A DNA stretch of 64,000 nucleotides, taken from positions 1-64,000 of the forward strand of contig NW_027437448.1 of assembly GCF_964204645.1 (NCBI RefSeq). Direction: 5' to 3'. Both the position numbers and the translations under genes were made by a program. The notes beneath the pieces are model-generated. The model ran no database searches. It had not been told where the DNA came from and was given only the letters and a program-made list of their open reading frames with translations. Position 1 is the first letter of the stretch. The number at the start of each line of letters is the position of its first letter. Positions 18,477 to 55,740 of the stretch are shown here, one piece after another. Origin of the DNA: Tubulanus polymorphus (Eukaryota; Animalia; Nemertea).

Positions 18477-18662
18477 GTTTGGTTATATTTTGTACCAATT
18501 GACTCAATTTTCTAGGTTTTTTTGTTACTCAATTTGTTTCGCTTTTATAATAATGTACTATGGTTAGATTTTTGTCCCAGGTTAAACTCCTAATTGCAGT
18601 AGCTTTAGTCACTGAATACAACGTTATCACTTTGGAATCTGATTTGTTCTGTTGCAGATAAA

Positions 18663-31592: not shown

Positions 31593-32724
31593 ACATACAT
31601 TCAAAAGTCACTTTTTGCGGCCAGAACTCGAAAGCGTAAAGCATCGGTGCCAGGCACGCCGGTGGGCCCAATCCGCAGAGTGATCTATCATATTTCTGAA
31701 TAGACTTAATACGCATTGAATCATCGGATTTCACGATCTAATCAGATCACGGCTGTTGGAGTAGTATTCAGGGAACCGCTTGAATCGAGGAACCGGTAGA
31801 TGGCGGGTCAATCGCTCATTCAATAGATGGCGTTCCTTTCATCAGTAGGAGCAATGGCTGCCAATCGAACTGTAAATATCGAAAAAATGCACTCAAAAAA
31901 TGATGATAGGATGAGCTTAGGCCTTAATTTCAAGCTAGATTTTTATGCTTCCACCGTGCTCGAATTTAGGGGATCCAGAAGGGAGGTTTTACCTGGATCA
32001 AAGTTCCGTGACGAATGAGGTTGTGTAACAACGCGCAAAATCATGCGGAAATCTTTGCTGCATGAATTGAATGTACCGTACTAATTACACTTACAGCGCC
32101 CTAGGCTACAAGCCATGGATGAATCAAATTGTCTTAATTTGGACAAAATTCTATATTCGGCCTATCCCAGTTGGTTTTAGCAAGGTTCCACTGATTGATT
32201 TATTCTCTTGAACTTTGAAACATGCCATAGGAGCCCTAAATCAATTTGGTCTTAATTTGATAGTACCGATACCAAAGTCGTCATTGAATCAATTTCTTTC
32301 AATCTGAATCAGAGCAGAGAATACTTAATGAACTATGCCTAAATCAATTTTAACAATTTGTTCACGTGCCCAACGTTTTAGATTAATCTCAAATCATCAA
32401 AAATATGGTTTATAAGCATGGAAACAGGAAACATCTCAAGAATTTCAAACCTTTTCTCTTCAACATGAGAAAATGAAGACTTTTTGATAATCCTTCAATG
32501 CCATGTGAAAAATCAATGGATATAAAATGATGGTAGGCCTATATTGAGACTGCACAGTTTCACGGGTGGTATTTAATTAAGACCAAATTTGAGGTATGTG
32601 TTGAAAAGATTAAGCAAAATATCCCCAAAAAATTGGGTGCTGATCAGGCCAAATATGAAGGCACTTTGGGTCTTTGAGGGGGTCCCTGGACTCGGGGCCA
32701 AGAATAGTCCCCAGGGTTGTATTG

Positions 32725-35700
32725 TAAAGCCACCAGGAGTCCATTTACCTGTTAGGGGGGCCGGGGCCAAGACTCATCGGGCAAATGTGATGAGGGTTTG
32801 GTTAATCGTTAAGGGGTACACCCTGCAGGTGCTTGTTAAATTTAGCACTAATCAAACCACAGGTAAAGCCACCAGGAGTCCATTTACCTGTTAGGGGGGT
32901 CCCTGGGCCCAGGGCCAAGACTCATCGGGTAAATGTGATGAGGGTTTGGTTAATCGTTAAGGGGTGCACCGTGCAGGTGCCTGTTGAATGTAGCACCAAT
33001 CGGACCACAGGTAAAGCCACCAGGAGTCCATTTACCTGTTAGGGCGGTCCCTGGGCCCAGGGCCAAGACTCATCGGGCAAATGTGATGAGGGTTTGGTTA
33101 ATCGTTAAGGGGTACACCCTGCAGGTGCTTGTTAAATATAGCACTAATCGGACCACAGGTAAAGCCACCAGGAGTCCATTTACCTGTTAGGGGGGGTCCC
33201 TGGGCCCGGGGCCAAGACTCATCGGGCAAATGTGATGAGGGTTTGGTTAATCGTTAAGGGGTACACCCTGCAGGTGCTTGTTAAATTTAGCACTAATCGG
33301 ACCACAGGTAAAGCCACCAGGAGTCCATTTACCTGTTAGGGGGGTCCCTTGGCCCGGGGCCAAGACTCATCGGGCAAATGTGATGAGAGTTTGGTTAATC
33401 GTTAAGGGGTACACCCTGCAGGTGCTTGTTAAATTTAATCGGACCACAGGTAAAGCCACCAGGAGTCCATTTACCTGTTAGGGGGGTCCCTTGGCCCGGG
33501 GCCAAGGCTCATCGGGCAAATGTGATGAGGGTTTGGTTAATCGTTAAGGGGTACACCCTGCAGGTGCTTGTTAAATTTAGCACTAATCGGACCACAGGTA
33601 AAGCCACCAGGAGTCCATTTACCTGTTAGGGGGGTCCCTGGGCCCGGGGCCAAGACTCATCGGGCAAATGTGATGAGGGTTTGGTGAATCGTTAAGGGGT
33701 ACACCCTGCAGGTGCTTGTTAAATTAAGCACTAATCGGACCACAGGTAAAGCCACCAGGAGTCCATTTACCTGTTAGGGGGGTCCCTTGGCCCGGGGCCA
33801 AGGCTCATCGGGCAAAAGTGATGAGGGTTTGGTTAATCGTTAAGGGGTACACCCTGCAGGTGCTTGTTAAATTTAGCACCAATCGGACCACAGGTAAAGC
33901 CACCAGGAGTCCATTTACCTGTTAGGGGGGGTCCCTTGGCCCGGGGCCAAGGCTCATCGGGCAAATGTGATGAGGGTTTGGTTAATCGTTAAGGGGTACA
34001 CCCTGCAGGTGCTTGTTAAATTTAGCACTAATCGGACCACAGGTAAAGCCACCAGGAGTCCATTTACCTGTTAGGGGGGTCCCTGGGCCCGGGGCCAAGA
34101 CTCATCGGGCAAATGTGATGAGGGTTTGGTTAATCGTTAAGGGGTACACCCTGCAGGTGCTTGTTAAATAAAGCACTAATCGGACCACAGGTCAAGCCAC
34201 CAGGAGTCCATTTACCTGTTAGGGGTCCCTTGGCCCAGGGCCAAGGCTCATCGGGCAAATGTGATGAGGGTTTGGTTAATCGTTAAGGGGTACACCCTGC
34301 AGGTGCTTGTTAAATTTAGCACTAATCGGACCACAGGTAAAGCCACCAGGAGTCCATTTACCTGTTAGGGGGGGTCCCTTGGCCCGGGGCAAAGACTCAT
34401 CGGGCAAATGTGATGAGGGTTTGGTTAATCGTTAAGGGGTACACCCTGCAGGTGCTTGTTAAATTAAGCACTAATCGGACCACAGGTAAAGCCACCAGGA
34501 GTCCATTTACCTGTTAGGGGGGTCCCTTGGCCCGGGGCCAAGGCTCATCGGGCAAATGTGATGAGGGTTTGGTTAATCGTTAAGGGGTACACCCTGCAGG
34601 TGCTTGTTAAATTTAGCACTAATCGGACCACAGGTAAAGCCACCAGGAGTCCATTTACCTGTTAGGGGGGTCCCTGGGCCCGGGGCCAAGACTCATCGGG
34701 CAAATGTGATGAGGGTTTGGTTAATCGTTAAGGGGTACACCCTGCAGGTGCTTGTTAAATTTAGCACTAATCGGACCACAGGTAAAGCCACCAGGAGTCC
34801 ATTTACCTGTTAGGAGGGTCCCTTGGCCCGGGGCCAAGGCTCATCGGGCAAATGTGATGAGGGTTTGGTTAATCGTTAAGGGGTACACCCTGCAGGTGCT
34901 TGTTAAATTTAGCACTAATCGGACCACAGGTAAAGCCACCAGGAGTCCATTTACCTGTTAGGGGGGTCCCTGGGCCCGGGGCCAAGACTCATCGGGCAAA
35001 TGTGATGAGGGTTTGGTTAATCGTTAAGGGGTACACCCTGCAGGTGCTTGTTAAATTTAGCACTAATCGGACCACAGGTAAAGCCACCAGGAGTCCATTT
35101 ACCTGTTAGGGGGGTCCCTTGGCCCGGGGCCAAGGCTCATCGGGCAAATGTGATGAGGGTTTGGTTAATCGTTAAGGGGTACACCCTGCAGGTGCTTGTT
35201 AAATTTAGCACTAATCGGACCACAGGTAAAGCCACCAGGAGTCCATTTACCTGTTAGGGGGGTCCCTTGGCCTGGGGCCAAGGCTCATCGGGCAAATGTG
35301 ATGAGGGTTTGGTTAATCGTTAAGGGGTACACCCTGCAGGTGCTTGTTAAATTTAGCACTAATCGGACCACAGGTAAAGCCACCAGGAGTCCATTTACCT
35401 GTTAGGGGGGTCCCTGGGCCCGGGGCCAAGACTCATCGGGCAAATGTGATGAGGGTTTGGTTAATCGTTAAGGGGTACACCCTGCAGGTGCTTGTTAAAT
35501 TTAGCACTAATCGGACCACAGGTAAAGCCACTAGGAGTCCATTTACTTGTTAGGGGGGGTCCCTGGGCCAAGACTCATCGGGCAAATGTGATGAGGGTTT
35601 GGTTAATCGTTAAAAGGTACACCGTGCAGGTGCCTGTTGAATTTAGCACCAGTCGGACCACAGGTAAAGCCACTAGGAGTCCATTTACTTGGTAGGGGCC

Positions 35701-35770
35701 AAGACTCATCGGGCAAATGTGATGAGGGTTTGGTTAATCGTTAAAAGGTACACCCTGCAGGTGCTTGTTG
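32725..35770. repeat. 148-bp satellite array (~20 highly homogeneous copies)
   Basis: ORF track repeats every 148 bp; unit includes the inverted pair acaggtaaa..tttacctgt. Confidence 0.97.
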
Positions 35771-35822
35771 AATTTTGTGCCGATACAAGGTAGTTAATCT
35801 GTAATTGATTGTTTCATTGTAG

Positions 35823-38800
35823 GTGCTTCCTCCAGGTCTTAGAAACCCTGGTAATGTCTGTTTCCTCAATTCTGTCGTGCAATGTCTTCGGGCCACCCGA
35901 GGCTTTTTACATCGCTTTTTTAAGAAAGCATGTTCGCAGCCCTGTAGGCCTACCTGCAATGCATGTAACATTCAGCAATCGTTACTTGGCAACACTGAGC
36001 CACTTATTGATAACATAAAAGGTATGTATAATTTTCATTGCAGTTTTTAAATGACAGACTTGTATGATAGATGAAACAACAATTTTTGATTGAAATGGTT
36101 TTAACTTGCAGCGTTGATATTTGACAATTGTTGTTTCACTGTCGAGTTAGAATATCTACTTAATTCACAGTGGATAAGTACATGCCTATTGTCAGACAGA
36201 CCATCAAATTTGTGTCTGAATGAAAGGTCAAGGCAACGTGGGCTCCAAAAGCACAAGATAAATCCATGGGCACAAGATTATCAGTAGGTGAAGGAACTAC
36301 ATTACAGAGCCGCAGCTTTCGATGTTCCTGAGATCGTACATAGTCTCTATGGGCATAGAAAATCTCATAGTGTTCATACGATTATTCTTGATGAAAAGAA
36401 ACGTGGGTTTTTTGCTAGCATTGAAGTGCATGTAGCAATTTTGCGATCTTTATCAGAAAGCATTGTTATTGAATATGACTCCCTATGTACTTTTGTAATT
36501 ATATTTTCCAGACTTCGTGGTCGATGCAGAAAAGCACCAACAGCAAGATGTGATGGAATTTTTTCATGGCGTGTGTTTGAAAGTCAAAGAAAAGTAATTA
36601 TTTTGTTCTCATCTTTTTAGCCAACTTGGTACCCACTTGGTACCATCCCCCCTGGTAGGGCTTGAAATCTGATGGCATTGATTGAGACTTGCCACTTCAT
36701 GAAACCTTACCATACTAGACAGAGAATGCAGCTTAGAAGATGCAATTATAAGCCAATCATAAATCCTGATTAATTTAAGCCCAGGTTTTTCCATTGATAG
36801 TTTATCTGTGAAATTAGTCTCGGTGATTATTCAATCAATCTGATTGGTGCCGCAAGTTTTCAAACCTGCATCTAGTGTGGCAGAGTTTCGTGCCGCTGCT
36901 AAGTCTAGCAATGCCATCAAGTTCTTATCCCTGCCAGGGGGATAACTTAGGATTTACATCCCACTTCTTTCATCATCTGTAGACAGAATCTAGTTTTCAA
37001 TACGCTTTGATTATGACCTTTCCAAGTCATAGGTTTGTGCATATATGTTCACCAGAGGGCATTGAATTTTGAAATTGTCAGATTGTTGACCAGTTCAGAT
37101 GGCGCGGTGTCCTTGGACCTCAGACCGGCCTGGTCAGAATCAAGATGGCCGACTGGTGCTGGCACTGTATCGTGGTTCAGTTCATTTTTCTAATCAAGAC
37201 AAAATCTACTCCTACCTTTAATTGCATTCCTGTTTCGTTATCTGATATAAGCATTTCATAAGGCTGTGGTAAACCTCTTGGCGCATTATTATTATTATTT
37301 CAAACCACCTTCCAAGTGGGCATGGTATCCCTATGGACCCCTAGTCAACTTTTTACCCTAAGAGGTATGGGTATGATTTCCATATTTTACTTTTTCATAC
37401 TGGTATATTTTGTGATCAATCTATTCTGTATTTGCTGTCACCTAGCGTACTATATTTTCAGTTTTCACTTTTGTTCTCTCTAGCTTCACTTGTGTATTTA
37501 TTTGCAGAATGCCGCTTTGTTTTGAATTTGTGCTGAAAACAACAGGTAGGTCGATGTGACTTTTCACAGAAAATTGCTGATATTTTCCTAATCAATTTTT
37601 GTAATGATGTAGCTATCCATTTGCAGACACTTGCCTGGAATGTGGAAAAGAGAGCATACGTCAGTCGGAACATTTGAATATGTCTTGTGCCATCGAGGTG
37701 AATATTAAGAATGTATTATATGCTAGTATTAGAAATTGCTCCACTGTTGTTTGATTGTATACAACCATGGAAGATGAACCGTGTCGACCCCTGATAGATT
37801 CAAACAGCTCATATCAGTGACTTGGAATTAATTTTGACCAGTTCCAAGATATACGGATATTCTGATTATGTGAAAAATTGGCCTTTAGTGGGTGTGGCAG
37901 GAGGTGGTATATCGCGGGTTTGGTTCACTGCAAGTTTTTTTAGTAAAATAACAATAATTACGCAGAAGCTCATCTGCAATTTGACTTATAATAGTGGTAG
38001 GGCTACAAGATCTGTTAATGCAAATATGCTTATGGTACCTAGAACACTCATTAGGTCTGGTGATCATGTCTTTAAATCTTATGGACCTCGTTTATGGAAT
38101 ACACTTCCTGTGGATATGAGAACAATTGTTACATTGAGACATATAAAAACTTATTTAAGAATTGTCTGTTTAAAAGGGCCTTCCTCGACCAAGAGATAGC
38201 ACAGTTAGCAAGTTTTTCAGTATAGTGCTTTACAAATTACTTGTGCTATGTCAATGACAAACCTATAATTAGATTCATCTTTGAATTCATTTTGTAGTCA
38301 GAAGAACGGAAAGCATTCCAGACCATTCAGGAATGCGTAACTAATTTCTTCAGTCTAGAGGAGGTGACGGTTCGGTGTTCAGAGTAAGATATCAAAGATT
38401 AAGTACCAGTATACTCTCTTTCAGTCCACTTCTAATACAAATGATGTAACCTTGTTATTCTTATAGTATTAACAACTATAAGTTTGGTTGTGTGCACTGT
38501 ATATGTATAACCTACCGGTAAATATCATCAGATATAATACATGTCCCCACTTAATCCATCAACAGGTGTCCGTGTGAACAAGCTTTTCGCTTTCAAGAAC
38601 TTGTGAATGCACCTGATTTCATTGTCATTGATTTGAAAAGGTTAGCCATGTTATTTGTATTTTTTGAGCTGTTTCACATCGTAAATTTGATAATATCTAT
38701 AATGGAAATATAATGATAATATATATAATATATGAACTTTCTAATTGAAATACTTCTAATGGATTTCATATAGATATCGTTGGTTCGGCAATGCAGGGAA

Positions 38801-41800
38801 ACTCATGCACCACGTAAACATTGGAAAGAATTTAGATATTCTTGTTGGAAATGATCAGGTAATCTTCTACTATTTCACTTGGAAGTTGTTTAAAACAATG
38901 TAAAACGCTTGCATGACATTGTGGCATGCTCTAGGGGAAATTTTTTCCCAGTTACGTTTTAACTCCTGACACTATTAATCATTATAATCAGTATTACTCA
39001 ATAGCGTATTTTATTATCATGATCATTTGAAGTGCTTTGATCAAAGTAAATCTTGAGTGTCAAGAATCAGTCATCATGTTTTTTGTATGTGTGATTTCAG
39101 TATGTTTATGAGTTATATGCTGTCATTACTCATCGAGGTGTCGAGGTAACCAGTGGGCACTATGTTGCATATCTGAAAGTTATGAATGGTTGGGCTCTTG
39201 CCGATGATGATAATGTAAGTTTAGCAAATCAATAATGAAATGAAAGCTAATTTATGATCAAAGTATGATTTGGGTCGTTGAATTCTAATGCAGTTCATGT
39301 TAATACAAATGTATTCCAAAACCTGTCATCAATTAAATCTATTGATATATAATGAGATTAGGCTATACATTATTTTTTCATCTGTCAGGTTTCCAGTATG
39401 AGAGCTCCAATCTTTCAAGGAGGCGAGCCGTATGTTTGCTTTTATGAAAAGAAAATTCACTCTGTAAGTACAATTTGCTTATTCATATTGATACACGGAT
39501 ATATGTATCAATAACCACAATCAATTGCAAAATTGTAACTCCTGGTGGCTTTACCTGTGGTCCGATTAGTGCTAAATTTAACAAGCACCTGCAGGGTGTA
39601 CCCCTTAACAATTAACCAAGCCCTCATCACATTTGCCCGATGAGTCTTGGCCTTGGGCCCAGGGACCCCCCTAACAGGTAAATGGACTCCTGGTGGCTTT
39701 ACCTGGGGTCCGATTAGTGCTAAATTTAACAAGCACCTGCAGGGTGTACCCCTCAACGATTAACCAAACCCTCATCACATTTGATTAGTTTTTAGTATAT
39801 GGTCACCAGGGGACATTGAATATTGGAGTATTCTGATTGTTGAGCAGCATTTCAAACCACATCCCATGGTGTCCCTGGATAGTTTAATATTGACAAGTTC
39901 GATCCCTACGTTATCTTGACTTAAGCACGTACAGAAGATTCCTATCAGTTTAATCAATCACATCAGTTTAATCAAAAGACCTTGCCTACAAGGCTGTCAA
40001 ATTAGTATTATCATGTATAGTATATATTTAGCCCACATTTGATTTTTGAAGTGTTAGAAATTTTCTTATCATTATTACTATAAGATATATCATTTATTAT
40101 AGAGGTTTTGATTCGCAATTATTGTGCAAAGCTTGGAGCACAGGTTGACATGACCACAGTTTTTTATGTATTGCTCAGCCTTTTTTTAAATGTCTTTCAA
40201 TTCATATATTGCAGGTTAATACATCAGAAATGCCTCAAACTGTAAGTAGAAATAATTTATTTCTTATTCCTGAATTGTACCTCATTGGGTTTTGAACCAA
40301 CTTTTGACGTATGTGGTCCTGAGCTTAATTTCTATATATAAACGTCTGAATCAGACAGTGATTATGTATATTTGTGACAATTTGCTGAAATCTAATTTAC
40401 CGGTAGTTAACTCAACCTATGTTCAACGGAGGAATGATAAATTGCTGATCTTAGTTAAGATTCAAATAGATGATTTGGGGAATTAATACACTTATCATAT
40501 CGAAATTTGTATGGGAAAATTTAGAGGTTTAACAAGTTTTGAACCTATGAGTTTTAGAAGTTTTGTAGAAAAAGATTTTTAATTAATCATTGTTTAAAGT
40601 TTGGCCCATCACCATAAGAAAAATTTGGTCGATCGGACTCAAGTTGGCAGTCCTATGACCTTTTTAGTGCCCAAAAAGGTCAATTTTGGCACAAATTCTG
40701 AGTCCTGTAGCTTCTTACTGGTTTGCCATTTCTCATTGCAATTTGTGATGGGTATTCTTTGGACCCCTAGTTTGTGTGGCGAAAATGGACCGTGTTTAAC
40801 ATCTCCGGTTCGTTTTCGTTACAACATCTCATCATCCTTTCCTCCGATATCTCCAGGTGGAGCGATTTCATATATATAAATATGTTTTGTATTGTGTAAA
40901 TTTGTATCTGTGTACTACTGTCAATTTTTCGGGCGTCTCGTTACGGTCTATCGCGTTCGGGTTGGGGGTTTTGGTCGGTTTTTGTCGGGAAATAGCACGA
41001 TCACATCTTTTTATTCGGCTTTTATCATAAATTCGCGCTATGACATTCTGGTTACTTACCGGCAGTCTATTCCTTTGTATTCGCTTTTCAATTTTGAACT
41101 GCCGTTTTGTGATGTCATAATCCCACTTTCATCATATTTCCGTAGTTTGATTTGTTCTCATCGGTTTCTCGCTCGCGAGTTGAGCATTGTCGCACTGCTA
41201 GGCGGCTCACTATTATTGCGCGCGGATATCAAACTCGGGTTTGATTTTCAAATTCCGCTTTTAACCTTTCAAACTTATTCTTTTGGCATTTTTATCGCGT
41301 ATATCGTGATATCACTAATGGCCAATGAGCGCCCCCGGATTTCTATAAAAGGCGGGTCGTTCGAGCACAGTCATTCTGATTTTCGAATCACTCGCACGTA
41401 CTTATAGTATCAGCGAACAACTTACAGCAATTAAATTCTTAATCAAATATAACTATTAAAATGTAAGCGATAAGAGACGCACCCTCTCTATCCCGCCTTC
41501 GGGTTGGATAGGGTCATCTTGTCCAACCCGAAGGATGAGATATATTCACTTTTAGATCGTCCGGCCAAGTTAGATGCTGACCGAGTTTGATTTTGGCCAA
41601 GTTTGATTCCGGCCCACTTTGATTTCAACCAAGTTTGATTTTTTCGGTCTCCTAGTCTAGCAAAATCTACCGACCGAGAGCGTCACTATGATGGACAGTC
41701 ATGATCAATTTTGTTTAGTTTAGTCGAGCCGACTTTTGTTCATACGTAGAATTATTTTCCGGGCGTATTGATCGTCACATCATTTTCAACTACGACTGTA

Positions 41801-44800
41801 TTGATCCACTCTCGGTCGAGCGATTTTGCTCCGATTGTATATAAAATATATATGTTTCTACATTTGAGCGCGATTGAATAATGATTTGAGATCGTCGCTA
41901 TAATTTTCAAATCATCTCTCACCGTACGCCCGAATAAGGTGACTCTAACGTAATTTCGTGACTTCGTATAATTTGACGTTCCTGACGCGAGACCGTACGG
42001 AGATGCACCCGAGGTGTAAACTTTATGAACTGGAGAAATGATTAAATTCAGGAGTTCAACTCTTGACATGATTAATCTTATACAAGTCTTACATTTTCGT
42101 CTTTTCTGAACAAGGAGAGGAGTTCCACCGCTATTTTCTGTCTCAGTGCCAATTATTATTATTCGTCTTAATGAGAGGACCAGTTCGATCGGGGACGTAT
42201 CGGCAGTAGTTACATGAAGACCATCAATCGAGGATTCGAACCCCCAATCTTTGTATCGACTGACGGCCTTTATCCAGGGGAAGTCATGACAAAGTGTCAT
42301 ACGGAGCGAAGGTAGATGTTGGGAGAACTAGGTTCGATCGCGTGCGAAATCCTGGCCAGGTAGTCGCCTACGAGGATGCTGAGCCCTGATCATGGAATGA
42401 GAAGACTGAATATTTTTATTTGATTATAATTTCGACAAGAACTGATATCTTTTCCCTGAGGAGGAATTACTTCCCCCAATATTTTCGCATAACCCGATTA
42501 TATTGTCTCAGGGCGAACCCTAGTAGCAAACGCCTATTGCATCTATTATATACGTAAACATATAAAGACCCGCTACCCAGGAGAGATACGCTACATTTGC
42601 TATTCTACCAGTTTGGATGGATTACCGAATAGACTAGTACCGTTATAGGCCGACTCTACTGTATATCACTTGGGGCGAGACCGCCACCTCTACTGTATAT
42701 CACTTTGGGGTGAGAGGACGTTACCAGAATTATCCAACTCAAAACAGAACAAACTATATTTTGAAGAAGAATTCACGATTGATTTTTATTAATTATCTTA
42801 TGTTGCGATACATCATAGGACGATTCACACTGTAGAGCATCAAACATTCGCTTTAACAACTTAAATATCGGTATAAACGGAAGATGCTACATATTCACAT
42901 AGTTTCAAGCTGCATATTTACAATTTCATATTATAATATTCATTGGCCCTGTTACTTATTTGATTGGTATTTTTTTTTCATTTGGTATAACAATCTCATC
43001 ACACCTTCTGGAGACAAAACAGGGGCTTTGATTTTGAAATCAAAGATTCACATATAGTTGTGTGATTGGTGGTCAAATAAACAGAGTTTTCTTGTGGAAA
43101 TTTTATGTTTTGGTAGTTTTCCCTGTATGAATAGTTGTTTTTAAACCCAACTTCGTACAATACCATTATAGTTTATCAATGTTAGCTATGCATTTTGTTA
43201 TTTTAGATAAATACATCTCGGGGACCATCAGCTCTCAGCGACGATGTGTATGAGATCATGCTTTCTGTGCTAAGTGGAAAGAAGATGCTCTCATCATATC
43301 AAGTTACTTCCGGTGACAAAAAATATGATGCTGTGCGCAAAAATGCTGCAAATAAGTTATCTTCAAAAGCTTACATATGTCAAAAAGTTAACAACAAAAA
43401 TGAAATTATATTCCTAAAAACGAGAAAAATTATTCCAAAATCATCAGCCATTGCCTCAATTATTGATCAGTACCACACGAGCATGGCTGGATCAGGTTCG
43501 TCCAAATTAGTAGGAGCAATCAGCAGCAGTTTCCATGGTATATCAAAGCAAACTATCCAAGATCATCTTAATTCGAAGCCAACGCACACGATACGGAATC
43601 CATTATTTACGAACAAGCCACCTATTAAGAATATAACAGCATCTGCTCCGATGAGCCGGGTACAAATAGATTTAGTACTAATGGAAGAAGTTGAGAACGA
43701 AGGATCTACGTACAGATATGTGTGCAGTGTGATTGACGTATTTAGTAGGTTCCTTTGGTTACGCCCAATTCAGAACAAAACATCGAAAACGGTGGCCGAA
43801 GTGACAAAAAATATATTCTGTGAGTTCGGCAACCCGCAATACGTACAGACCGATAATGGAACGGAATTCAAAGGAGAGTTTGATTCATTTTTGAAGACTG
43901 CAAAAATAAAGCATATATTTGGTTCGCCTAGGCATCCCCAATCACAAGGAAAAGTAATGATTATATTTTGATTGAAAAAATTGGGAAGTAGTTTTTGTAT
44001 TACAAATTTAACAATGTTTTTACCGTTCTTTACAGTCCGAAAGATCACATGGGAGCTGGAAGAAGATGCTTCGGTACCTACTCGGGAGAGATGATGAGAC
44101 AAATTGGGTTGCGCACATTCCTGAGCTCCAGAGAATTATGAATCAACGATCACATAAAGCATTTTGTATGTAATTAGGGTATTCTGCCTACCTTTGTTAG
44201 AAACCTTATTGTTATCCTAGGTATCATAATGATAGCCCTACTCCTCTTTTTCAGCCGATAAGATGACTCCTTTCGAAGTATTTTTTGCCAGGAAGCACAA
44301 TCAAGGTGAAGGCCTTCAAAATGGTCAAATGACGAAAGCAGACTCCGTAGATGAAGAAAATACTTCAGATGTGGCTTCTTCAAATGTGAATACAGTAAAA
44401 CCCCTTGCATGAATACCTCCCTATAGTGAATACTTCCTATAATGAACACCCTATGTGCGGTCCCAAAACCTAAAATACATCCCATGTCACATCATTACCT
44501 AACCCTCCCCATAGTGAACACTTTGCTTGGTCCCGATGGCGTTCACTATACAGAGGCTTTACTCTACTTCAGATGTGACTAGTAATAATACATGTTGATG
44601 ATGTGTTATATAACACATGAAACTTTTGTACTTTAAAATTTCAAGCTCACTGCCTGGGAGAATGAATCCGCTTCAAAGCGAAAAGCAGCTGAAGCACTTT
44701 CAACTGTATATAATGCTGCAATGGTCAAGGGACATAAGAATAGATACCCTTGTTCCCAGTATGAACCTGGACACCGTGTTTTGGTGAATGTAAGTACTTG

Positions 44801-45731
44801 TTAAATCTGCATTCTTTCATCCAGTGTGGAAATAAAGCTTGAAATGCTTTTATCTTCCATTTATACACATTGTGTATTCAATAAACATTACTGGCTTAGG
44901 GGTATTGCCATCTGTCAGGAAGAGAATGCTCCTGCTCTAAAGTCTACTTCTGTTTTGAACCAATTTTCTGATTACATGGTAGGTGAATAATGGATGGAAG
45001 ATGTGCTGTATTGTTTTTACTCGTGTAGATTATCCAAGATAGCCGCCACAGCTATATTTATAGAGCCTTCATAGTGTAGCTCTAGTTACATTTTATGTAC
45101 AATTATTAAAGAATTTACCAATTTTCAACCCCCTCCTTATATTTTACAAACTTCCAAAAAATCTGCTTCCCCTAGTACGTGCAATGAGTTCTAAATCAGT
45201 TTATCATTATCAGGCAACAGCAATGAAAAAGACGAAACTTTATAGTAAGACTGGGCCAAAGTGCCATAAAGGAGTCATCCTAAAGGTCGGTAAAATGGGA
45301 AGAAAGTACCAAGTCCTGGTCAAAGATTCTCTGTTGTGGGTGGATATTAGTATGCTGACATCCCTGACAAGGATGAAGCAAAAGAAGCTTTTAGGAACTA
45401 AATGTAAGTACTAACGGAATTAACTGTTTCCAAAAGTGCACTGATTCATTAGAATTATTCACACTTGCATAAAAGAGGTTTTACTGTAATTACTGATGAA
45501 TGATGTTGTTTTATTCTTATTCTATGACAGCTCCTCTAAATAGATATTGTATGTGTGTTTCCAAGTGCAAGAAGACAAGGGCACCGAAGTGTGAAAACTA
45601 TATGCACAGAGACTGCTGCAAGAGTGCAGGAAAAAAGTGTGCTCTTCACAATATCCTGTAAGTAATCATCCGATTGGTTGATTTGTAGATAGATGAAATT
45701 TATCTGAAATTTATCTCAAGTGAGTGGTGAG

Positions 45732-45775
<44 letters not shown>

Positions 45776-48621
45776 TGTATCTGCACATATTCGTACACAT
45801 AGATTTTATGATGGCTTATATGATGGATTTAATGGTATATACAACTATGAAAGTGTATTTAATTGAGAATGGTTTTCCATTTTAGGGGTGATGAAACCAT
45901 TTCTACTGAAACCAGGCACATTATGGATCGCGTTGTTGGTGAGGTAGAGCATTTTTTTGTGAATTCTGTCAAATCAATCCTATCGGATCTTTTCATTTGA
46001 AATCTTCATTTAGAGTACCAGATCTATTTAAGGACTTGAGTTGTTGTGTTAATGAATATACATAATAGGAGGCTAAACTTTGCCATAATTTTTCAGTTTA
46101 AGATAGTTGCTAATTCGTAAGTATTTTTTGGCTCACACCAAATCATGTGTATACAAGTGACGCATGCACATGGTTTCTGTTTTCACACCTTTTAATTTAA
46201 TGTGAGTGGTTTAAATTAATTCGAAAATAACAGTTGGTATTATTTGTCAAAGGGTATATATATATATATTTACATCTTGGTGTATGTGCACATATTCTGC
46301 CTTTTATAACACGCTATCAATGTGAAACACATGTATTTACTTTAATCTCTGCAGGTGCTTTAGCGTATGTGTCTGTGTGTCTGGAAGACACATGGACCAA
46401 TACACTATTGATATCTTAACAAATCATATATCATATTCTTTGATTATCCCGTGATCAGTTTACGGTCTAGGTATTGTGTCATTGCTTTTTAGCCAACTAG
46501 TCCCAGCGGGCTATGAAGGTTCAGTTTGTCGGTCCGTAGACAGAATCCAGTTATTTAAGGAAGTTTTACAGATGCTGCGGTAGACAGTTGATAGTTAAGC
46601 ACTTCAAACCAGCTCCCAAGTGGGCAAAATGGGCCTGCACCCCTAGTCTTAGTGTATTTTTCTAATTCTGCTACACTATGCTTTTACGCTATGTATGTAG
46701 TGAAATAATCATGTAATATCCATAAAACCCCTGTGTGATCACATTAATTGTATCGTTTTTCTTTAACATTCCAGTTGAATGCAGACACTCATCATATTGA
46801 TCAATGTGCGCAACAAATATCTGATAAGATTAAAGCTAGTAACAGGTAAGCCATACTATAAACTATAACTGTTATGGTTTGCAATTTCCACACGTTAATT
46901 CATACCAATATCTCATTCCTGAATATTTCAGCTCTGATCAGGGTGACAGCAACGCTCACAAGCAGGGCGTGGAAGGAATGATGACTCTTATTAAGACAGT
47001 GAAGTGAGTAGTCATGATGAATGTACAGTCCACCCCGATATCCCGCCCTCCCCGCCTACTGCCAGGTTTTCTCCATGTACATCTCAAAACACCTCCGATA
47101 TACCGCCATACTCTCTATAGTGTCATACTCTCTATACCGCCAAAATCGTTCTGCACTGATGTGGGCGCAGTATACCAGGGGTTGACATTAGTGGTAAAGC
47201 AAAATCATTTTGATATTAGACACTGGTATCAAACTGCCTCAAGCTTTATTGTATTTAATCCGAATGGTCTAAGAGCAGTCAATGCTAAAGTATGAATCAT
47301 TTTTACTTACAGAGATGTTTCGCAGCTAGAAGATAAGCAATTAACTTATTTGGTTATGCAGAATGAGTGCTATTTGAGGAATATTTTCCAGGGAAAGGTA
47401 GTGTACTTAAAATAATCATATATACCAGTCATTAGCGATTAATTTTGTGTTCAGGTGTCGTACAAAACTATCTCTCTAAGGTATTATATTAGTCTTCCAT
47501 GACTGATATGTATCACAGTATTCATTACTTGTAGTCAACAGTAATGCTCATTTAATATATATATACTTTTAGACTAAATGTCGACGCCATGAAGACTACA
47601 AGAATGGCGGAAAGAGCAGGCGTAAGTTGAAAATTAAGTACAATAACCAGTAGCTAATACCCTGGTAACCAAGTGTTTATGTGCCTTGCTTACTGTATTT
47701 CAGGTAACTTGACCTTGCAAGTACCAATCACTTTGTACAGTGATGCGCAATGTGATGTAATAATAAAGGGATTAATGGACATGTTTTGCCCAACTGATAC
47801 GAAGGTTTGTATATACCGGTAAAGCTTTAAGTAATTTACCCTAGTATATCAAGTATTGCGTATGTAACCCACTTAAGTGAGCCATTTCGGTGTAGACGAA
47901 ATATTTTGGGTTGTTTTAAATATGCTTCAATGCTTGTCTCGCTATGTTCACCAGGGGTTGTTTAATAGTAGATGTTCTATCCTCCCCTGGCAGGGTTCGT
48001 ACCCGATGGCATTGGCACAAAACCCTGCCACATTAGACCGAGTGCGCAGCTACCAGGCAGCTTAGATGATGACATTATCATTATTAGCAAATCAGATATC
48101 CCGGGTTTTCCCATTCTTTGTTGTTCCGTGAAATTTACCTCCGCGATTCTACAGCAAGCAATCTGATTGGTGCCGTAAGTTTTCGCGTGGCAAAGCTGCA
48201 CACCCGGTCAAGTGTGGCAGGGGTTTGTGCCGTGTGGCTGAGTGAAGCGATGCCATCGGGTTCGATTCCCTGCTGTGGGAGGATGTAGATGTACCTGCAT
48301 ATATTGTTATATTTTGTATGTACTGCATTTTTAATGTCATTGATTCCTTAATTTGTTCACAGGGGGCATTGAATATTGAAATTGTCTGATTGCTAAGCAT
48401 TTCAGCAAATGTGCATGTTGTCTCTTAACACTTTGTTAGCCCGACCTCACCAAACTTTTGAATTATATTTTCAGTACATGGATTATGTGTTTCGAGTTTT
48501 GTTGCCAGAAACACTGATAAAGATCTATATGGAGGTCCATCAAACATCACATGTACTAGCAGAAGAACGCTTGGCCGATGCTCTTTTGGGAAGTGAAAGT
48601 GATGAAGACACTGAAAGCTGA
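35823..48621 (+). CDS. 23-exon gene encoding USP (C19) deubiquitinase domain + DDE integrase (Ginger/GIN-like) + SH3/GPY-like region + Cys-rich finger + PWWP3/MUM1-C-terminal-like domain; first exon not resolved
   Basis: Exons 35823-36021, 36512-36593, 37508-37545, 37627-37697, 38298-38383, 38566-38640, 38774-38858, 39101-39214, 39389-39463, 40215-40241, 43207-43953, 44036-44165, 44255-44385, 44646-44789, 45214-45403, 45531-45657, 45886-45943, 46775-46845, 46932-47003, 47313-47397, 47573-47621, 47704-47804, 48475-48621; all GT-AG, phases match, 2904 nt with no internal stop. Motifs GLRNPGNVCFLNSVVQCL, QQQDVMEFF, CLECG, IVIDLKRY, YELYAVITHRG..SGHYVAY..WALADDD; RVQIDLV, VIDVFSRFLWLRP, QTDNGTEFKG, SPRHPQSQGKSER. 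Confidence 0.8.
36650..37090. mobile_element. Degenerate copy of an interspersed repeat also at 47945-48395 (fragment at ~39805)
   Basis: Shared caatctgattggtgccg.aagttttc and gttcac.ag.gggcattgaat.ttgaaattgtc.gattg blocks. Confidence 0.7.
37975..38170 (+). mobile_element. 3' fragment of an L2/CR1-group LINE ORF2
   Basis: YNSGRATRS..LMVPRTLIRSGDHVFKSYGPRLWNTLPVDMRTIVTLRHIKTYL matches the typical L2/CR1 ORF2 tail pattern (LRS..L.VP..G.R.FS..GP.LWN.LP..IR). Confidence 0.7.
39537..39782 (-). repeat. Inverted ~1.6-unit copy of the 148-bp satellite
   Basis: Minus-strand ORF 39508-39756 reproduces the satellite peptide; near-exact reverse complement of the array unit. Confidence 0.95.
40775..42595 (+). 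mobile_element. Solo LTR (Gypsy-like), 1821 bp, in the intron between the USP and integrase exons
   Basis: Ends TGTGGCG..CGCTACA (inverted, TG..CA) flanked by a perfect 4-bp TSD TTTG (40771-40774, 42596-42599); TATAAAA at ~41345 followed ~25 nt later by Inr-like CAGTCATT. Confidence 0.8.
44393..44564. mobile_element. Tc1/pogo-type MITE
   Basis: TA|CAGTAAAACCCC..GAGGCTTTACTC|TA, internal tatagtgaa/ttcactata inverted motifs. Confidence 0.7.
47945..48395. mobile_element. Interspersed repeat with inverted arms containing tRNA-like A/B boxes (SINE- or MITE-derived)
   Basis: tggctgagtga (A-box-like) and gggttcgattccc (B-box-like) at ~48236-48271; 47990-48050 is an inverted degenerate copy of 48195-48275. 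Confidence 0.6.
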
Positions 48622-50727
48622 TCAATTGCCATATCTATAGTCGTTATTACGAGGTTCCACTGTTACATGATTGAAGTGTATGTTCCATCCATGCTTTTCG
48701 TAATTGACTTTGTGTTTTACATAGAGCAAAATATTTTTCATATACGTGGCAATGTACGTTGTATATTATAATTCATTGATACTGAAACAAAGTAATTTTG
48801 TATTGGTATATTAAGTATGTTGAACTGTTCTGACAATCACATATCACTGATGTTTTTCATATTCTTTTTTATTGTTTGGTGAAAACGAAAACATTCAAAT
48901 AATGTATGTAGAGTAGGTATTGGGTTAAGAAAATTTTATCAACAAAACAAACGTCCGTTGTGTTTTGTCTTTTATAAGCTTCGAGAGAACTAAGTATCAG
49001 TGGATAGAAAGAGGTACATGTATATAATATTCCTGTGTATATATTTTTTAATGTCAACGCAGAGGGATGTAAAATTAGAATCTTGTAAAATTGACATGTT
49101 CATTTTAAAAGAGATTATACATATGGTTATTATATTAATTTGGTCCTTTAGATGTAATATGCATTTGTATGTTTACTGATATATTTTATATGATAATAGA
49201 GCATAATTCAATCTTTTATCCTATTTTTATCAAATGTCAAAATGCTCAATAACATATTAAATCAGTTCATACTTATAACTACATATCTAGCTCTGTTTTC
49301 GAATAGATCTGAAGTTAACTAGTCTACATATCATATAACTCAATAAAAAGTCTAATTCATTTAGGCTTAGATGCATGAAATCAAAATATTTGATATGCGT
49401 AGTATGAAAACTTGGGCCTAGTCAAATGTTTACACTAAATTTGGCTAAATGAAATAGATTAAAATACTTACCTGTAAATATCAGCGAATAGAAAGAGTAA
49501 GATATATAAAATTAATGTGTATATGTATCGAGAGTTTTAAAATCTGAATAACTTTCTGAGTCACTGCGACTATATATCTACCCTTGGGCTAGCTGGTGTC
49601 AGATGGCCTAATATTTAATTAAATACAAACTATTCGTGCAATCGATCGCTATTACTCGTCGATTACTGCACGCTATTACTACCTTGTTTGAGTGTATCGT
49701 CAAACCGCCAGATTGTATAATATTGATAATTGATAAGTTTGTTTAATGATATGATAAATATCAATTGAGCAAGATGGTAGACACACAGGTGCTCACAGTA
49801 ATTCACAGTTTTAATTCGACTGATTTTCCTGAAAATTGAGACAAAACAACGTGTTTGCCGATAAATAATCAAAGTAAATTAAAGTCTGCCTTTCCGTCTG
49901 CCATCTAAACTTCGCATCAATGAAAAACTGATATTATCAGATTGACACATGCATTTACACTAAAGAATATATGTGAAATTAAGTGTTGCTAAATATTTGT
50001 AATATGCTCACACTATACATGCTACGTTTCACAAGTACGATCGTCTTTCCAGTATGCATAGCAATTTAGTTATTTTTTGAATTACACTACTTATATTTTC
50101 TAGACATATCATTTGTAGTGCATTTATGAATGACATAAATAAAGGTATTTTGTATTAATTAAGTTTGGTTTCAATTGTTTTTATGCCATTCTTTGTAACA
50201 AGGCTACGTACGTTGCTGACGAGCAAAGAAGATTGCATACAGATCGTTGCAATTCCTAGATACGATTCCTGTCAATTAAGTTCTCTCTATGTTTGTTGTA
50301 AAAAATACGTTCTGGATCTGGAACTTGGCAATAAGCAAATGAAACATGGTGTATAGACTGCCAAAAGAACTATCGTTTCAAGAGCATCGCCATTATGAAT
50401 AATCATCTAGAAATTCGAGGAAAAGCTGTGCGATTTGTTAGGGATAAGTGAATAACTTAAATTTCACAATTTTCAAAGATTGCCCTAGCTACGCTTATAG
50501 GGGTAGGAGATAGAAAATATCTATGCACGTTGTATGTATATTCGAAAGAATACCCACAATGAGCTAGTTTTTTTGTAATTTATACATGAAATATCAAATT
50601 AACATATAACTGAATAGTGCATGGAGATTTGATACACTAGTTTGTTAGTTATTCGAATCAAATGTTTCGTTGAAAGCACTGGCTTAAAATTATGTTTTTG
50701 TTGTTATAATTTTGAATATGAATAAAC

Positions 50728-52380
50728 GGTTGTAGGTAAAAATCCCCTGGGTAAAAATCCCCCAGGTAAAAATCCCCCAGGTAAAAATCCCCTAGGTAAA
50801 AATCCCCAATTATTCAAAGTAGGTAAAAGTCCCCCACCTTTTGAATGTAGTCCAAATTAGATACAATTTTAAGGTCAATTTATTCGTATTAATATATTCT
50901 ATTTATTATTTACCTTATAATTGCGTTACATAGAAATATCATGTATAGAAGTTATCGCATTTCAATGAAAAATACAAAATTAGAAGTTAATTAATTCACA
51001 AAATCGCATCACATTAAAAATTACAAATTGGTTGTTCATTAATACTGTATCGCACAAAATATAAGTTAAAAAGAAAACAATCGCACAGTTCAAACATATT
51101 ATGATTTTAATTTTCAAAAAGCACTCTAAATTAAAAGTTTATTTATAACGCACAGCTTAAATAATATATCACAAGTTTAAAAAGGCTCATCAAATAGGTA
51201 AAAGATATTACATTTTGAAGTTTAAAAAGTATTACAAATTAGAAGTTATTAATTAATGTACAAAATCGCATCACATTGTAAATCACATCGCACAGTACTG
51301 CATCGCGCAAAATATAAGTTAAAAAGAGGTCATCGCACAGTTCAGTTTTATTTTCAAAAAGTACTCCAAGTTAAAAGTTACTTTAGTTAACGTTTATCAA
51401 TTCTAATTTCCAAGCGGAATGTTATGACCCACACCACGCAGGAAATCGGCCATATTCAAATGTCCATCATTGTATTGTCGACACAGTATTTGTAATCGTT
51501 CGTGTAACGGACGATGGATGTTGCTAACCCGTCGTTGTGGAACTCCACCGATGGCGTTTTCCATTATCTTGGTGCTTGTGACACTCTGTTCCATTTGAAT
51601 GGGACGGATGGCGCGCCATATAGAAGGGTGTTTTGTGCCCAATCAAATTGCGGAATCTGTTGTTCCATTCTTCTGAAACATTATTAGTTTTTGGGTCAGA
51701 GTTTAAAGTTGCTCGATTTACGTTCCATCTCTCGGGTGCAAATCTCGGAGCAATTCTCCGTATTATGTGTCGATTCTCTTCTCCGATTCTTCTTTCCCTA
51801 TATGTTCCATTAACATATGTCGCATCGAAGTAGTTAATAAGAGGATCACAACCATCTGAGGCAACATCTCGTAGATGTTGCATTCCCGCCACAACATCCG
51901 CAGTGGGAAGAAATGCCAAACCATCAAGCCCACAGAATAACTTGAAATCGTCCTCATTCTGATACCTGAATACATAAGAGTAAATGAGTCAACAACAATT
52001 TGTACAAAATCATTCAATTATTTTAAAAATTAAAAAAAGGTCATTTTCTTACCGATTTGCCATCCCGAGCTCTTGTATCTTGCGCCAGGTTGATTGTCTT
52101 AGGTGATAAAAACAACCCTGAATCTGCAGTGCATCGCCGAAGACAGCTCTTAACGCGTGATGAACATCTCAAAGTCCACTATAACTGTATCGGGATCAAT
52201 ACCATCGACATTTTCACTGATGGCATTGAACAAATCCTCGTATGTACCTTCTGACTTCCGCTGTAAGAATGTGTACACTAAAGGAACTGTTATATTGTCA
52301 ACCAAAGGAGCATGGATGACATACACCTGAGAAAAAAGTGGTGGTGCCATCGAAAAAGTTCACAAAGGATATTGGTGAGG
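50728..52380 (-). pseudogene. Truncated, frameshifted MULE (Mutator-like) transposon with 3' TIR
   Basis: Minus-strand fragments PPLFSQVYVIHA..VPLVYTFLQRKSEGTYEDLF..IVDFE and AFLP..INYFDATYV..FAPERWNV..PKTNNVSEEWNNRF, HPSIWRAI in different frames; TIR ggttgtaggtaaaaatcccc with internal 15-bp repeats at 50728. Confidence 0.85.
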
Positions 52381-52463
52381 AATTAAAACTTGAAAGCAGC
52401 AAGCGGAAAACAGTTCGATTTAAATTTGTCGTAATTCAAAGTAAGCATAGGCAAAGAGCTAAC

Positions 52464-53145
52464 GGTTGTAGTTAAAAGCCCCCTCTGTAAAAATCCTCTA
52501 GGTAAAAATCCCCAAATATTCAAAGTAGGTAAAATTCCCCACTTTTCAATGATGTTCAAGAACATTTCAAAGCAAAATGTTTCTGAAATTTTATTCATTT
52601 GCAATGAGATTGAAATATGTTTGAACTGCGCAATGAAATCTTTCGTTGGGGTGAATTAGTTAACTCTTAGAATAAGATAAATTGTTAGAATTAATAAGAA
52701 TAATGAACTTATTATTCTTTATATCGAAAAATTCGAACTGAAATGGTATATTTTTGAAATGTGAAATCGTGTTAACTTGTATTTCAGCTGTGCGATGCCA
52801 TGAGTTAATAGAAATAATGAACGTTTAATTTGAAATACTTTAGATTCAAGCTAGTGCGATAAATTTTAAATGTGCGATGAACCCTTTCATTAACTGCTAT
52901 AACTTAAAGTACTAATTTGGTATTAATGAACTGTTAATTTGTTGTAAGTTTTAATGCAATTAGTGTATACTATAGTTTGTACGCTCGTGATATCCTATGG
53001 TTTTCCACGGTAAAATATAAATAAATTGGATATGTGTATCTGAATTAATTTACCTCAAATTGTATCACTTCATTCAAAAGGAGGGGGATTTTTACCTACT
53101 CTGAAGAATTGGGGATTTTTACCTAGGGGATTTTTACCGCTAACC
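52464..53145. mobile_element. Complete non-autonomous MULE element of the same TIR family
   Basis: Inverted ends ggttgtagttaaaagcccc../..ggggatttttaccgctaacc; 9-bp TSD AGAGCTAAC (52455-52463) / AGAGCTTAC (53146-53154). A further degenerate TIR lies at ~53360-53510. Confidence 0.8.
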
Positions 53146-53732: not shown

Positions 53733-55740
53733 GTGTGCATAGCACAGGTGGATCCGTTTCATCTATGATTGTGCACTAAAAAGAACAAATTGCTGCTTCT
53801 AGAAATGTCTTCACATTGCTAAAGATCATAAAAACACCTTTTAGCAACAATTCTACTTGACCTCCCTACCATGTCGCCAGGATCGAGGTTCCCAGCGCCT
53901 AGTTTTGCCTGTGCACAATTCGAAAGAGCGCTTTGAAAAGGGTACTCCCAAAAACTTGGTGATCTTTCATTGTATTTCCAAGTGACCATTTCATTTGAAT
54001 AACCAACACTCTCGTAAAACCATCAAAATTGTCAATTTGTTTATGTTCAATATGCTGCAAATGCAATATCTTTTTATTATCTCCAAAAACAACTTGTCAT
54101 TTCTTCAAGTCGATCACGGAGTGGGGTTTATCACGATCTAGGCGCTTTTTTCAGATTAATTTAAAAGACGCATGAATCTTTTCTGCCATGTTTACAGTGA
54201 TAACCCTTATGGCCTTATTCCCAGTGATCCTGACAAGTAAGTGTTGGTAAACGTTGCATTTTACGGTACTTGATGGGCCAGCCAAAGATTTCTTTGAACT
54301 TTTTGGTTGAGTAAATTCTCTACAATTTTTATCTTTTCGAAATTTCAAACCTGAACTCAGTTCACAAAAATTCCCCTGACGTCAATAATCATAATTAGAT
54401 AAAAATTACACAATATGTTTTTGACAAATATTTATTAATATATGTAATAAAAATGTGCATTTTTTATTAAAATTGTTAGATGGAAGATGGGAAGATTGTT
54501 AGATGGGAAATTCAATGATTTTAAAGCAGGGCCACATTCAGGCATCGGCTACTGGCAGCTCTAGTACCTGCATTGATTAAAGTAGGTCTGTAAACGAATT
54601 AATACGGTATGGGAGAAAATGGCCTCTATATCCTGCAAGTCTGGTCTGGATTTTTCGCCGATGAGTCAACAGCCGATACTTCGTAGTTTGATTTTGATAA
54701 ATTCCGTCGTATAAAATTGTTATGTGAGATCAAATGTAATAAATATAGAATGTGTGAAGGGCTGGGATCACCTGCAATCTCCATTTCCTTAGAAACAAAA
54801 TCCACATTGGAATCAGATAGATAAAACGAAAATTTCCATACAAAGACTTTATTATTATTCAAGCTTTATTTTCATTTTTCAATCACATATTCAATCTATA
54901 CATGCCACTTCTAAAAAAAAATAGAAATAAGGCAGTTGGATGATACATGCTGTATACTGCTATATACACATCTACCAGCTACATAACCTCATATTTTAAC
55001 GTTAACCAGATACTAATTAAAAGTTCATCATTATCATACCAGTCCCCAAATTAATCAGCCATTATAAAGCATCAACCAAGATTACAGTTTGATAATCATT
55101 ATGTTTATAACTCCAGAGATGTACAAGGAAGTCAATCCAAAGTCAAATTTGGTTAAGTGCTCATAATGATAAGTCAAAGTGATGTTTGAAACATAAATAC
55201 TCAAGTCACAATCTGTATTTCTAATATGTATTTATAATCAAATCTGCCAAATGTAAGTGATCATCTGGATAAGTCGTCACTTTTATCACAATCCCCAAAG
55301 TGTCGAGTTAACCGTGGTTAACTGTTTTAGTTGAATCAACACATCAAAAGGGAGTCCCACCCTACGGTCTTATAATCACTCGATACGGTTCAGATACAGT
55401 TCAGAAGAAGAGTTAACAGCGTGATAAGTCTTATTGGTTCCCACTCTGTTTCTCTGTTTGTAGTTTTCTGTCAGTATGCTGCAAGTAGATAAAAAAATGT
55501 ATGTCAATTATCAAAATTTTATGTGATTTTGTATAAATATGTAATAATGAATACTCACAACTGTTCACAGCATTTCTTCTTTATGCTCGCCAGTTCAGCC
55601 ATGAATCATCATAACCTGGTAACATATTATCTGCCAATCCATTTACTTATAACCCTAGGAGGCACTGGTGGTCGACTCAATACAAAAACAGCAATCTTCC
55701 CTGCTAATAAAAACGTGGACAATACATAAATGTCTATTAT

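Follow-up and report, generated by a model that had tools for sequence, protein, structure and literature searches.

We analysed a 64,000-nt stretch of the genome of the nemertean Tubulanus polymorphus (contig NW_027437448.1, positions 1 to 64,000; hereafter, the window), where a predicted gene at 35823..48621 joins a ubiquitin-specific protease (USP) domain to a DDE integrase-type transposase and to a tail resembling the C-terminal domain of PWWP3A/B. In our preferred reading, which is tentative and rests on the sequence, the locus may well be one low-copy, recently duplicated Ginger-like unit, whose product would be a fused USP-integrase-PWWP3C-like protein. The USP looks catalytically complete and appears in the same orientation and the same compositional domain as the transposase, and the two likely travel together. 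The USP-transposase fusion is plausible but faces a concrete rival: the two domains could be encoded by separate genes of the same mobile unit.

Gene structure and encoded domains

The gene model was rebuilt from splice-site candidates by their coordinates within the window, the sites being scored with a leave-one-out matrix. It comprises 23 exons on the forward strand separated by introns of 81-2965 nt, all 22 of which are GT-AG, and contains 967 codons followed by TGA with no internal stops; this observation is far beyond chance. The exon number, the phase-compatible introns and the stop-free product of approximately 967 aa described in the initial annotation were rebuilt exactly. The catalytic motifs that it reported as intact are also in place, namely C13, H232 and D248 in the USP domain and D439, D500 and E535 in the integrase, with 34 residues between the second Asp and the Glu. 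The features are as follows.

31827..32532, + strand: region of putative first coding exons, each with an ATG and a phase-0 donor (31871, 32532; a further candidate has its donor at 31135)
32757..35698, no strand assigned: tandem array, 148 bp x 20, in the presumed first intron
35823..39463, + strand: exons 1-9, encoding a minimal USP domain (peptidase C19; aa 1-275), with the Cys box in exon 1 and the His box in exon 8
35823-36021, 36512-36593, 37508-37545, 37627-37697, 38298-38383, + strand: exons 1-5
38566-38640, 38774-38858, 39101-39214, 39389-39463, + strand: exons 6-9
40215..40241, + strand: exon 10, a 27-nt linker with an in-frame ATG inside (acceptor score 10.1, donor score 8.9)
40781..42900, + strand: CpG-rich block in intron 10, a predicted internal promoter or foreign insert (CpG observed/expected ratio, o/e, 1.41)
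43207-43953, 44036-44165, + strand: exons 11-12, encoding the DDE integrase core (D439/D500/E535) and a transposase N-terminal domain that lacks HHCC
44255-44385 (or 44394), 44646-44789, 45214-45403, 45531-45657, + strand: exons 13-16, integrase C-terminal region and Cys/His-rich module
45886-45943, 46775-46845, 46932-47003, 47313-47397, 47573-47621, 47704-47804, 48475-48621, + strand: exons 17-23, linker and PWWP3A/B C-terminal-like domain (stop at 48619-48621)
48622..49400, + strand: presumed 3' untranslated region (AATAAA first occurs at 49342; CpG depletion stops at ~49400)

The profile search that the initial annotation had proposed placed UCH on exons 1 and 8 (Pfam E 2.9e-7 and 8.5e-9; eight exons scanned) and rve on exon 11 (E 9.8e-18), all above the Pfam cut-off. 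Among PDB sequences, too, both exons match USPs best, with weak E-values of 1.4e-4 for exon 1 and 3.3e-4 for exon 8. With exon 1 as the query, no scored homologue was found among the longer proteins; in the ESM Atlas exon 1 matched only clusters of UCH fragments, and no match was found there for P0162, one of the RefSeq proteins considered below.

The junctions of exons 11-16 are independently supported, since a profile of 16 related transposases spans aa 295-772 colinearly (E 5e-117), and the junctions of exons 18-23 are identical in the RefSeq models of near-identical copies. The exon-13 donor at 44385, initially considered the least certain junction, indeed has an alternative at 44394 in one RefSeq model, which adds 3 aa and leaves the phase unchanged, but the splice matrix favours 44385 (6.6 vs 2.6). 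Exon 17 is read in another frame in both RefSeq proteins, P0162 and P0164, as is exon 16 in P0164; we rejected this alternative frame of exons 16-17, since the Cys/His-rich frame matches the relatives, some of which have the Cys/His-rich module of exons 13-16 in common with the window gene. The first exon that had been suggested, with ATGATG/gtaggc at 32527, is now one of at least three phase-0 candidates (donors 31135, 31871 and 32532). Part of the 148-bp array recurs in inverted orientation within intron 9, at 39538-39783. An Rfam scan of the window yielded two weak matches only, at the chance level.

The tail (aa ~835-960), whose likeness to a known domain was missed in the initial description of the gene, resembles PF20886, the PWWP3A/B C-terminal domain, with E 6.5e-5, below the Pfam cut-off. 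Positions 14-123 of this 141-position profile match three T. polymorphus proteins (E 6.5e-5 to 1.5e-3), the scores being 18.9-23.3 bits vs the cut-off of 27. Among tail domains PF20886 alone matched, and neither OTU nor Ulp1 was found; the fold model of the tail was too poor for use (predicted local distance difference test, pLDDT, 46). PWWP3A/EXPAND1 binds 53BP1, and a tail of this kind might anchor the enzyme on chromatin or on repair factors.

The transposase, its relatives and its copies

The fold model of exon 11 has pLDDT 89.5, with foamy-virus integrase as the best structural match. Neither zf-H2C2 nor Integrase_H2C2 matched, there is no CxxC in the 85 aa preceding the first Asp of the triad, and no literal YPYY or GPY/F motif was seen on reading the translation. 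The transposase belongs to a Ginger-like, widespread lineage of DNA transposons with terminal inverted repeats (TIRs) and without the HHCC finger. It would work like a Ginger transposase, yet it fails the motif tests for both Ginger1 and Ginger2 of PMC2836005. Thus, the initial Ginger-like reading stands for the transposase in general, not for Ginger1 or Ginger2 in the strict sense, as the H2C2 finger is missing.

Searching 1.84 billion representatives with exon 11, we obtained 1187 relatives at E<=1e-10. The domain census covered all 56 listed matches of at least 400 aa: among these, 34 carry OTU (one of them just under the cut-off), one carries Ulp1, three are reverse transcriptase (RT) polyproteins, and 53 are without RT. 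In two of the 56 (P0071 and P0081) an F-box-like domain, below the cut-off, follows OTU, so that a ubiquitin eraser and a ligase adaptor reside on one transposase. The integrase of the relatives is N-terminal, the motif that starts exon 11 being ~5-50 aa from the protein start. Most relatives are calls of a single open reading frame (ORF), blind to a spliced upstream USP; hence 80 related loci, ~4 kb on average, were fetched. In four of them (L010-L013) TIRs flank the related gene; the L012 element spans 4444 bp between TGT..ACA ends, its TIRs are 236 bp long, and its target-site duplication (TSD) measures 5 bp. At the position of intron 11 the core is unspliced in 62 of the 63 informative related loci.

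In a quick tree of 68 cores, built without named reference transposases, the window protein is situated next to the OTU group rather than securely within it, with a modest support of 82-83, the nearest row being P0001 with 47% identity; the HHCC-bearing matches branch apart. The integrase phylogeny suggested initially is obtained here in this quick form, with the window protein placed by the OTU group among unnamed rows only.

Several further observations concern the related loci. Upstream of the integrase match, a hydrophobic Met-initiated leader of 20-41 aa, similar to a signal peptide, is seen in 14 of the 22 loci checked, several of which are near-duplicates (L001, L002, L007, L009-L013, L016, L021, L023, L026, L027, L064). 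Read-through of a T-rich intron end could give the same appearance, and L005, L006 and L019 show a plain splice acceptor there instead. The distant integrase relative at L072:845-4138 is preceded by genes for PC4, NADAR and BIR, a setting that resembles a Polinton or a virus. Among viral contigs there were 41 pattern matches and zero relatives.

The search with exon 23 found two T. polymorphus proteins among 47 candidates, and a cluster look-up added a third. P0162 (LOC141905893, on a 24.9 Mb contig) is identical to the window protein at 168 of 169 positions over aa 794-962, and P0164 (LOC141898740, on a 32.1 Mb contig) matches exons 13-23 apart from a few substitutions that are specific to it; identity between the two proteins is 98%. 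As these RefSeq models reside on different contigs and are both 98-99% identical to the 3' exons in the window, the unit appears to have been recently duplicated. Dispersed near-identical copies, as expected for a Ginger-like transposon, are thus represented by two RefSeq loci from different contigs. The 3' part is present at two loci or more, although one may be the locus of the window in another haplotype; the locus was also found in at least two other DNA samples. The third protein, P0163 (LOC141911569, 536 aa), has the tail alone in common (69% identity over 138 aa). The RefSeq models of the copies look like unsupported predictions that are silent on the true transcript.

One protein or two

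Composition says that the USP and the transposase belong together. Both are situated in a CpG-poor domain at ~32000-49400 (left edge at ~32000-32100), with CpG o/e of 0.75 in the USP exons, 0.41 in the USP introns, 0.72 in the transposase exons, 0.59 in the tail exons and 0.54 in introns 11-22, compared to 0.89-1.34 in 8 of 11 other stretches measured; these include most of the flanks and genes that we take, from reading their ORFs, to be the host genes BBS10, ING3 and SelD. The GC content of third codon positions (GC3) is 0.39, 0.39 and 0.41 in the USP, transposase and tail, respectively, vs 0.29-0.36 in four host coding pieces.

Read depth was taken at listed sites from raw DNA reads of a second individual (X5, 1934 million letters). 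It is 16-18 at USP exon 8, 11-18 at five sites in 44231-47459, 7.5-8.5 at 49070-50397, 11-42 overall in the intron-10 block (28-42 at 41577-42310) and 50-57 at the start of exon 11. In two further runs, X6 and X7 (the latter presumably RNA), hardly any words of the window occurred and the exons had no match, an outcome that counts neither for nor against any reading. Given the genome size of 313-358 Mb (PMC8468679), one diploid locus would have a depth of ~5-6, and the observed depth fits two or three loci for both the USP and the transposase. This argument is weak, because two bins misfit, 45086-45749 with the depth of 5.5 and 54382-55700, outside the gene, with 12.6-17.2.

These bins are among the observations that weigh against a fused protein made by one mobile unit. 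The stretch 53750-56900, outside the gene, is likewise CpG-poor (0.58). Both RefSeq models of the copies are without the USP and the integrase core. UCH was found in none of the 56 long relatives among the matches listed, and it is absent from the domain listings of a further 13 longer proteins; the best USP match in the 80 related loci has E of only 0.076, and Pfam UCH was not found in the 84 of 224 upstream open stretches that were scanned (16 loci). The transposase of the relatives begins at the position of the exon-11 start; in four loci this point is ~1.0-1.2 kb away from the left TIR. No TIR or TSD above shuffles was revealed in the window by self-BLAST, by TG..CA scans or by locally aligning the upstream region, intron 9 and intron 10 with the downstream sequence; the initial annotation had not found TIRs either. 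One candidate TIR pair, 40919/49096, was rejected, being a 10-bp match with no TSD.

The remaining observations of this kind come from intron 10, which at 2965 nt is three times the length of the next longest one and holds the CpG-rich block. In favour of one protein, the intron would be 845 nt long without the block, within the range of the other introns (81-914 nt), and the flanks of the block are CpG-poor. The block has a TATA box at 41344 with an initiator-like site ~26 nt on, the sole match to this pattern in the window, and a strong donor/acceptor pair at 41462/41556, 93 nt apart, a result seen in 6 of 300 shuffles; for both tests the patterns and thresholds were set after seeing the site. 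The acceptors at 40857, 41066, 41556, 41869, 43172 and 43186 score 5.1-9.2, with 7.0, 7.8, 5.9 and 9.2 among the values, vs 4.7 for 43207, and every higher-scoring acceptor of intron 10 closes the USP frame. In particular, the acceptor at 41066 adds 113 codons up to a stop at 41405, with ATTAAA 25 and 50 nt on (41430/41455). The lack of any AATAAA between 39464 and 43075, in contrast, favours one protein.

On the transposase side, an ATG at 42214 opens a 98-nt exon ending at the donor 42311, which is out of phase with exon 11 in the allele of the window; an extra base after 42310, present in 32 of 38 X5 reads, brings it in phase, and this in-phase allele also carries most of the X2 contig depth. 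In favour of one protein, an in-frame stop lies just ahead of exon 11, whose first Met (302) comes after the N-terminal motif of the family and is Thr in 19 of 50 X5 reads; therefore, the start must come from an upstream phase-0 exon. Exon 10 speaks for the same, having strong splice sites and no in-frame stop. The ATG inside exon 10 would also yield an N-terminus of the family length. A split start codon (an exon up to 41462, then 42278-42311) is in frame in the window and out of frame in the same 32 of 38 X5 reads, and was set aside.

The beginning of exon 11 (43207-43233) resembles exon 10 in its first residues and contains an 8-base word also present there, as though one had been duplicated from the other. 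The block contains two long stop-free frames, 40880-41407 on the forward strand and 41752-42327 on the reverse strand (175 and 191 codons); two such frames occurred in 0 of 300 shuffles, and neither had a Pfam match. It also contains a hairpin at 41496-41534 and five 16-bp repeats at 41563-41642.

The initial reading of a single fused protein holds as far as the common unit, orientation and phase are concerned: the 40241>43207 junction is phase-compatible, although, being a predicted junction, it does not establish the fused protein. The predicted promoter block, in turn, offers an independent start for the transposase and a separate last exon for the USP, and it was a pair of separate genes of this kind that the initial annotation had named as the outcome contradicting it. 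It is possible, though doubtful, that the unit indeed comprises two genes. The USP would then end separately, with exon 10 spliced to the acceptor at 41066 (stop 41405, ATTAAA at 41430/41455) or 41556, the transposase would be expressed from the intron-10 promoter via the ATG exon ending at 42311, and the USP would help it in trans. This arrangement agrees with the promoter-like block, the splice pair and the frames that close after each internal acceptor, with the majority allele at 42310 that puts the ATG exon in frame, and with the relatives, whose transposase starts at exon 11. The block has a USP-like or higher depth in the second individual (11-42), so it is not private to the copy in the window, and the common composition and depth would still tie the USP to the unit. 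On the other hand, the 98-nt ATG exon is out of phase in the allele of the window, the leader would be ~750 nt long with short upstream frames, the putative last exon of the USP is followed by ATTAAA rather than AATAAA and overlaps the promoter exon, and a 27-nt phase-0 exon 10 is better suited for a linker than for a penultimate exon.

The possible immobilisation of the element is indicated by 22 introns, compared to the unspliced core of the relatives, and by the lack of detectable TIRs and TSDs in the window. The corresponding alternative, a domesticated or immobilised chimeric host gene similar to KRBA2/SCAND3 or Gin-1, which has captured USP and PWWP3-like exons and spread by segmental duplication, seems improbable. 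It would account for the number of introns, which is 0-4 in Ginger1 and 6-8 in the host genes Gin-1/2 (PMC2836005), for the 62 of 63 informative loci unspliced at the intron-11 position, for the missing TIRs and TSDs, and for the presence of the locus in at least two other DNA samples. Moreover, the tail is 69% identical to that of a separate T. polymorphus gene, LOC141911569, and the X2 contig 49285-50197 is unbranched across the compositional edge. A host gene is at odds with the intact DDE triad, the near-identical copies on two different large contigs, the CpG depletion unlike that of the adjacent host genes, and the distance of the USP from solved host USPs (best E 1.4e-4 and 3.3e-4).

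Finally, a transposon beginning in intron 10 behind an unrelated USP gene, the phase-0 match being a one-in-three coincidence, is very unlikely. It would fit the finding that no relative in the sets listed above has a USP, and also the depth, which rises at 41577-42310 (28-42) and at the exon-11 start (50-57) but not at the USP exons, as if partial copies began in the block. Against it, the CpG and GC3 signature is alike on both sides, no left TIR in intron 10 matches the downstream sequence, and the USP, being minimal and divergent, does not resemble a conserved host USP.

Under the preferred reading of one fused protein, a long transcript would splice exon 10 to exon 11, yielding the USP-integrase-PWWP3C-like protein, in which the USP would have replaced the OTU deubiquitinase of the relatives. 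The USP would deubiquitinate the transposase itself or else, at the sites where the element excises and inserts, chromatin and repair proteins, and the DDE core would thereby survive long enough for cut and paste; the promoter-like block in intron 10 may additionally give a short, transposase-only form. A more far-reaching version is possible but rather unlikely: an active 17-kb, 22-intron element, making the fusion from the upstream promoter and the bare transposase from the internal one, which has swapped OTU for USP and captured a host DNA-repair-chromatin domain. If the two-promoter reading is true, promoter choice would switch the built-in deubiquitinase on and off.

Surrounding sequence and comparison with known systems

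Reading the 64 open frames of at least 100 aa in the window, we recognised no RT, RNase H or gag, and no Polinton genes (DNA polymerase B, ATPase, capsid), some of the frames being also domain-scanned; this agrees with the initial statement that no RT, RNase H, gag or DNA polymerase is nearby. No long direct repeats, as expected for long terminal repeats, were found around the gene. A decayed Mutator-like element, seen by eye, is located at 50735-53138. Its inverted repeats are at ~50735-50907 and 53020-53138, and on the reverse strand between them 51524-51988 holds a transposase-like remnant that has no Pfam match. A gene starting at 57627-57915 and continuing in later exons is presumably a selenophosphate synthetase, with an in-frame TGA at 57762 in the context Lys-Gly-X-Gly-Cys-Lys, by eye likely encoding selenocysteine. 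Two gene starts in opposite orientation, 13809-15242 (reverse strand) and 18609-18914 (forward strand), which we take to be UBE2V-like, each lie by a long tandem array. Throughout the window (1-64000) many introns are filled by unrelated minisatellite arrays with periods of 17-148 bp, up to 2.9 kb long.

The closest known systems are the integrase+OTU transposons with TIRs (P0001, P0018, P0050, P0002; L010-L013), which are 35-47% identical to the window protein over the integrase, colinear at aa 295-772, devoid of HHCC and in some cases endowed with the Cys/His-rich module. They differ in having a single ORF, a length of ~4.4 kb and a C-terminal OTU or Ulp1, whereas in the window 22 introns interrupt the gene, a USP is situated upstream, the tail is PWWP3-C-like, OTU is missing and no TIR was found. 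Ginger1 elements are similar in that they contain introns and encode, without RT, a DDE transposase of the Gypsy-like kind along with a cysteine isopeptidase (OTU or Ulp1). They are described as bearing the motifs YPYY, H2C2 and GPY/F; their introns number 0-4, their protease is C-terminal, and their TSDs are CCGG/CCGT (PMC2836005). The window gene is without H2C2, literal YPYY and GPY/F, and its protease is a USP situated upstream. Ginger2/Tdd and KRBA2/SCAND3 have a similar DDE core, and Ginger1 and Ginger2/Tdd elements are characterised by TIRs that start with TGT and by 4-5-bp TSDs, features seen in the relative L012; Ginger2/Tdd retains H2C2, which the window protein does not have, and is without GPY/F and YPYY, and no protease is described for Ginger2 (PMC2836005). 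Polinton/Maverick integrases are also without HHCC, the Polinton TSD being 6 bp, and GingerRoot/IS3EU elements mostly have TA..TA ends and a 6-bp TSD, instead of TGT..ACA and 5 bp in L012. PWWP3A/B (MUM1/EXPAND1) has the PF20886 domain matched by the tail, and differs by its PWWP domain, which the window protein does not have.

Host domains fused to integrases are known (KRAB, SCAN; PMC3575427), and so are transposases carrying proteases, namely Ginger1 with OTU or Ulp1, Mutator with Ulp1 and Helitrons with OTU or VTD, the deubiquitinase classes being interchangeable on Helitrons (PMC2836005, PMC9741609). A DNA transposase joined to a USP-class deubiquitinase also has a precedent, compared here by citation only: Trichomonas vaginalis XP_001314237.1 (transposase_11 and Peptidase C19), which is cited in the Discussion of PMC2836005 and belongs to another transposase family (pfam01609) in a protist. 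The novelty initially claimed was somewhat overstated, given this C19 precedent and the existence of the lineage in the integrase+OTU form; what stands is that a USP on an rve-type transposase, its N-terminal placement and the PWWP3-C tail were not found in the literature, Repbase and two supplements being outside the search. What a transposon-borne deubiquitinase or deSUMOylase does for transposition is a matter of conjecture (PMC2836005, PMC9741609), the roles proposed being in DNA repair signalling at transposition (PMC2836005) and in shielding the transposition proteins from the proteasome (PMC9741609).

Against this background the locus would show that a cut-and-paste element can approach the architecture of a host gene, with 22 introns and a PWWP3-like tail, while keeping its triad and recent copies. 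It would be a natural swap, with OTU behind the integrase in the rest of the lineage and USP in front of it here; such a swap would argue that the activity, not the fold, is selected, and the locus offers an intact pair of domains for study.

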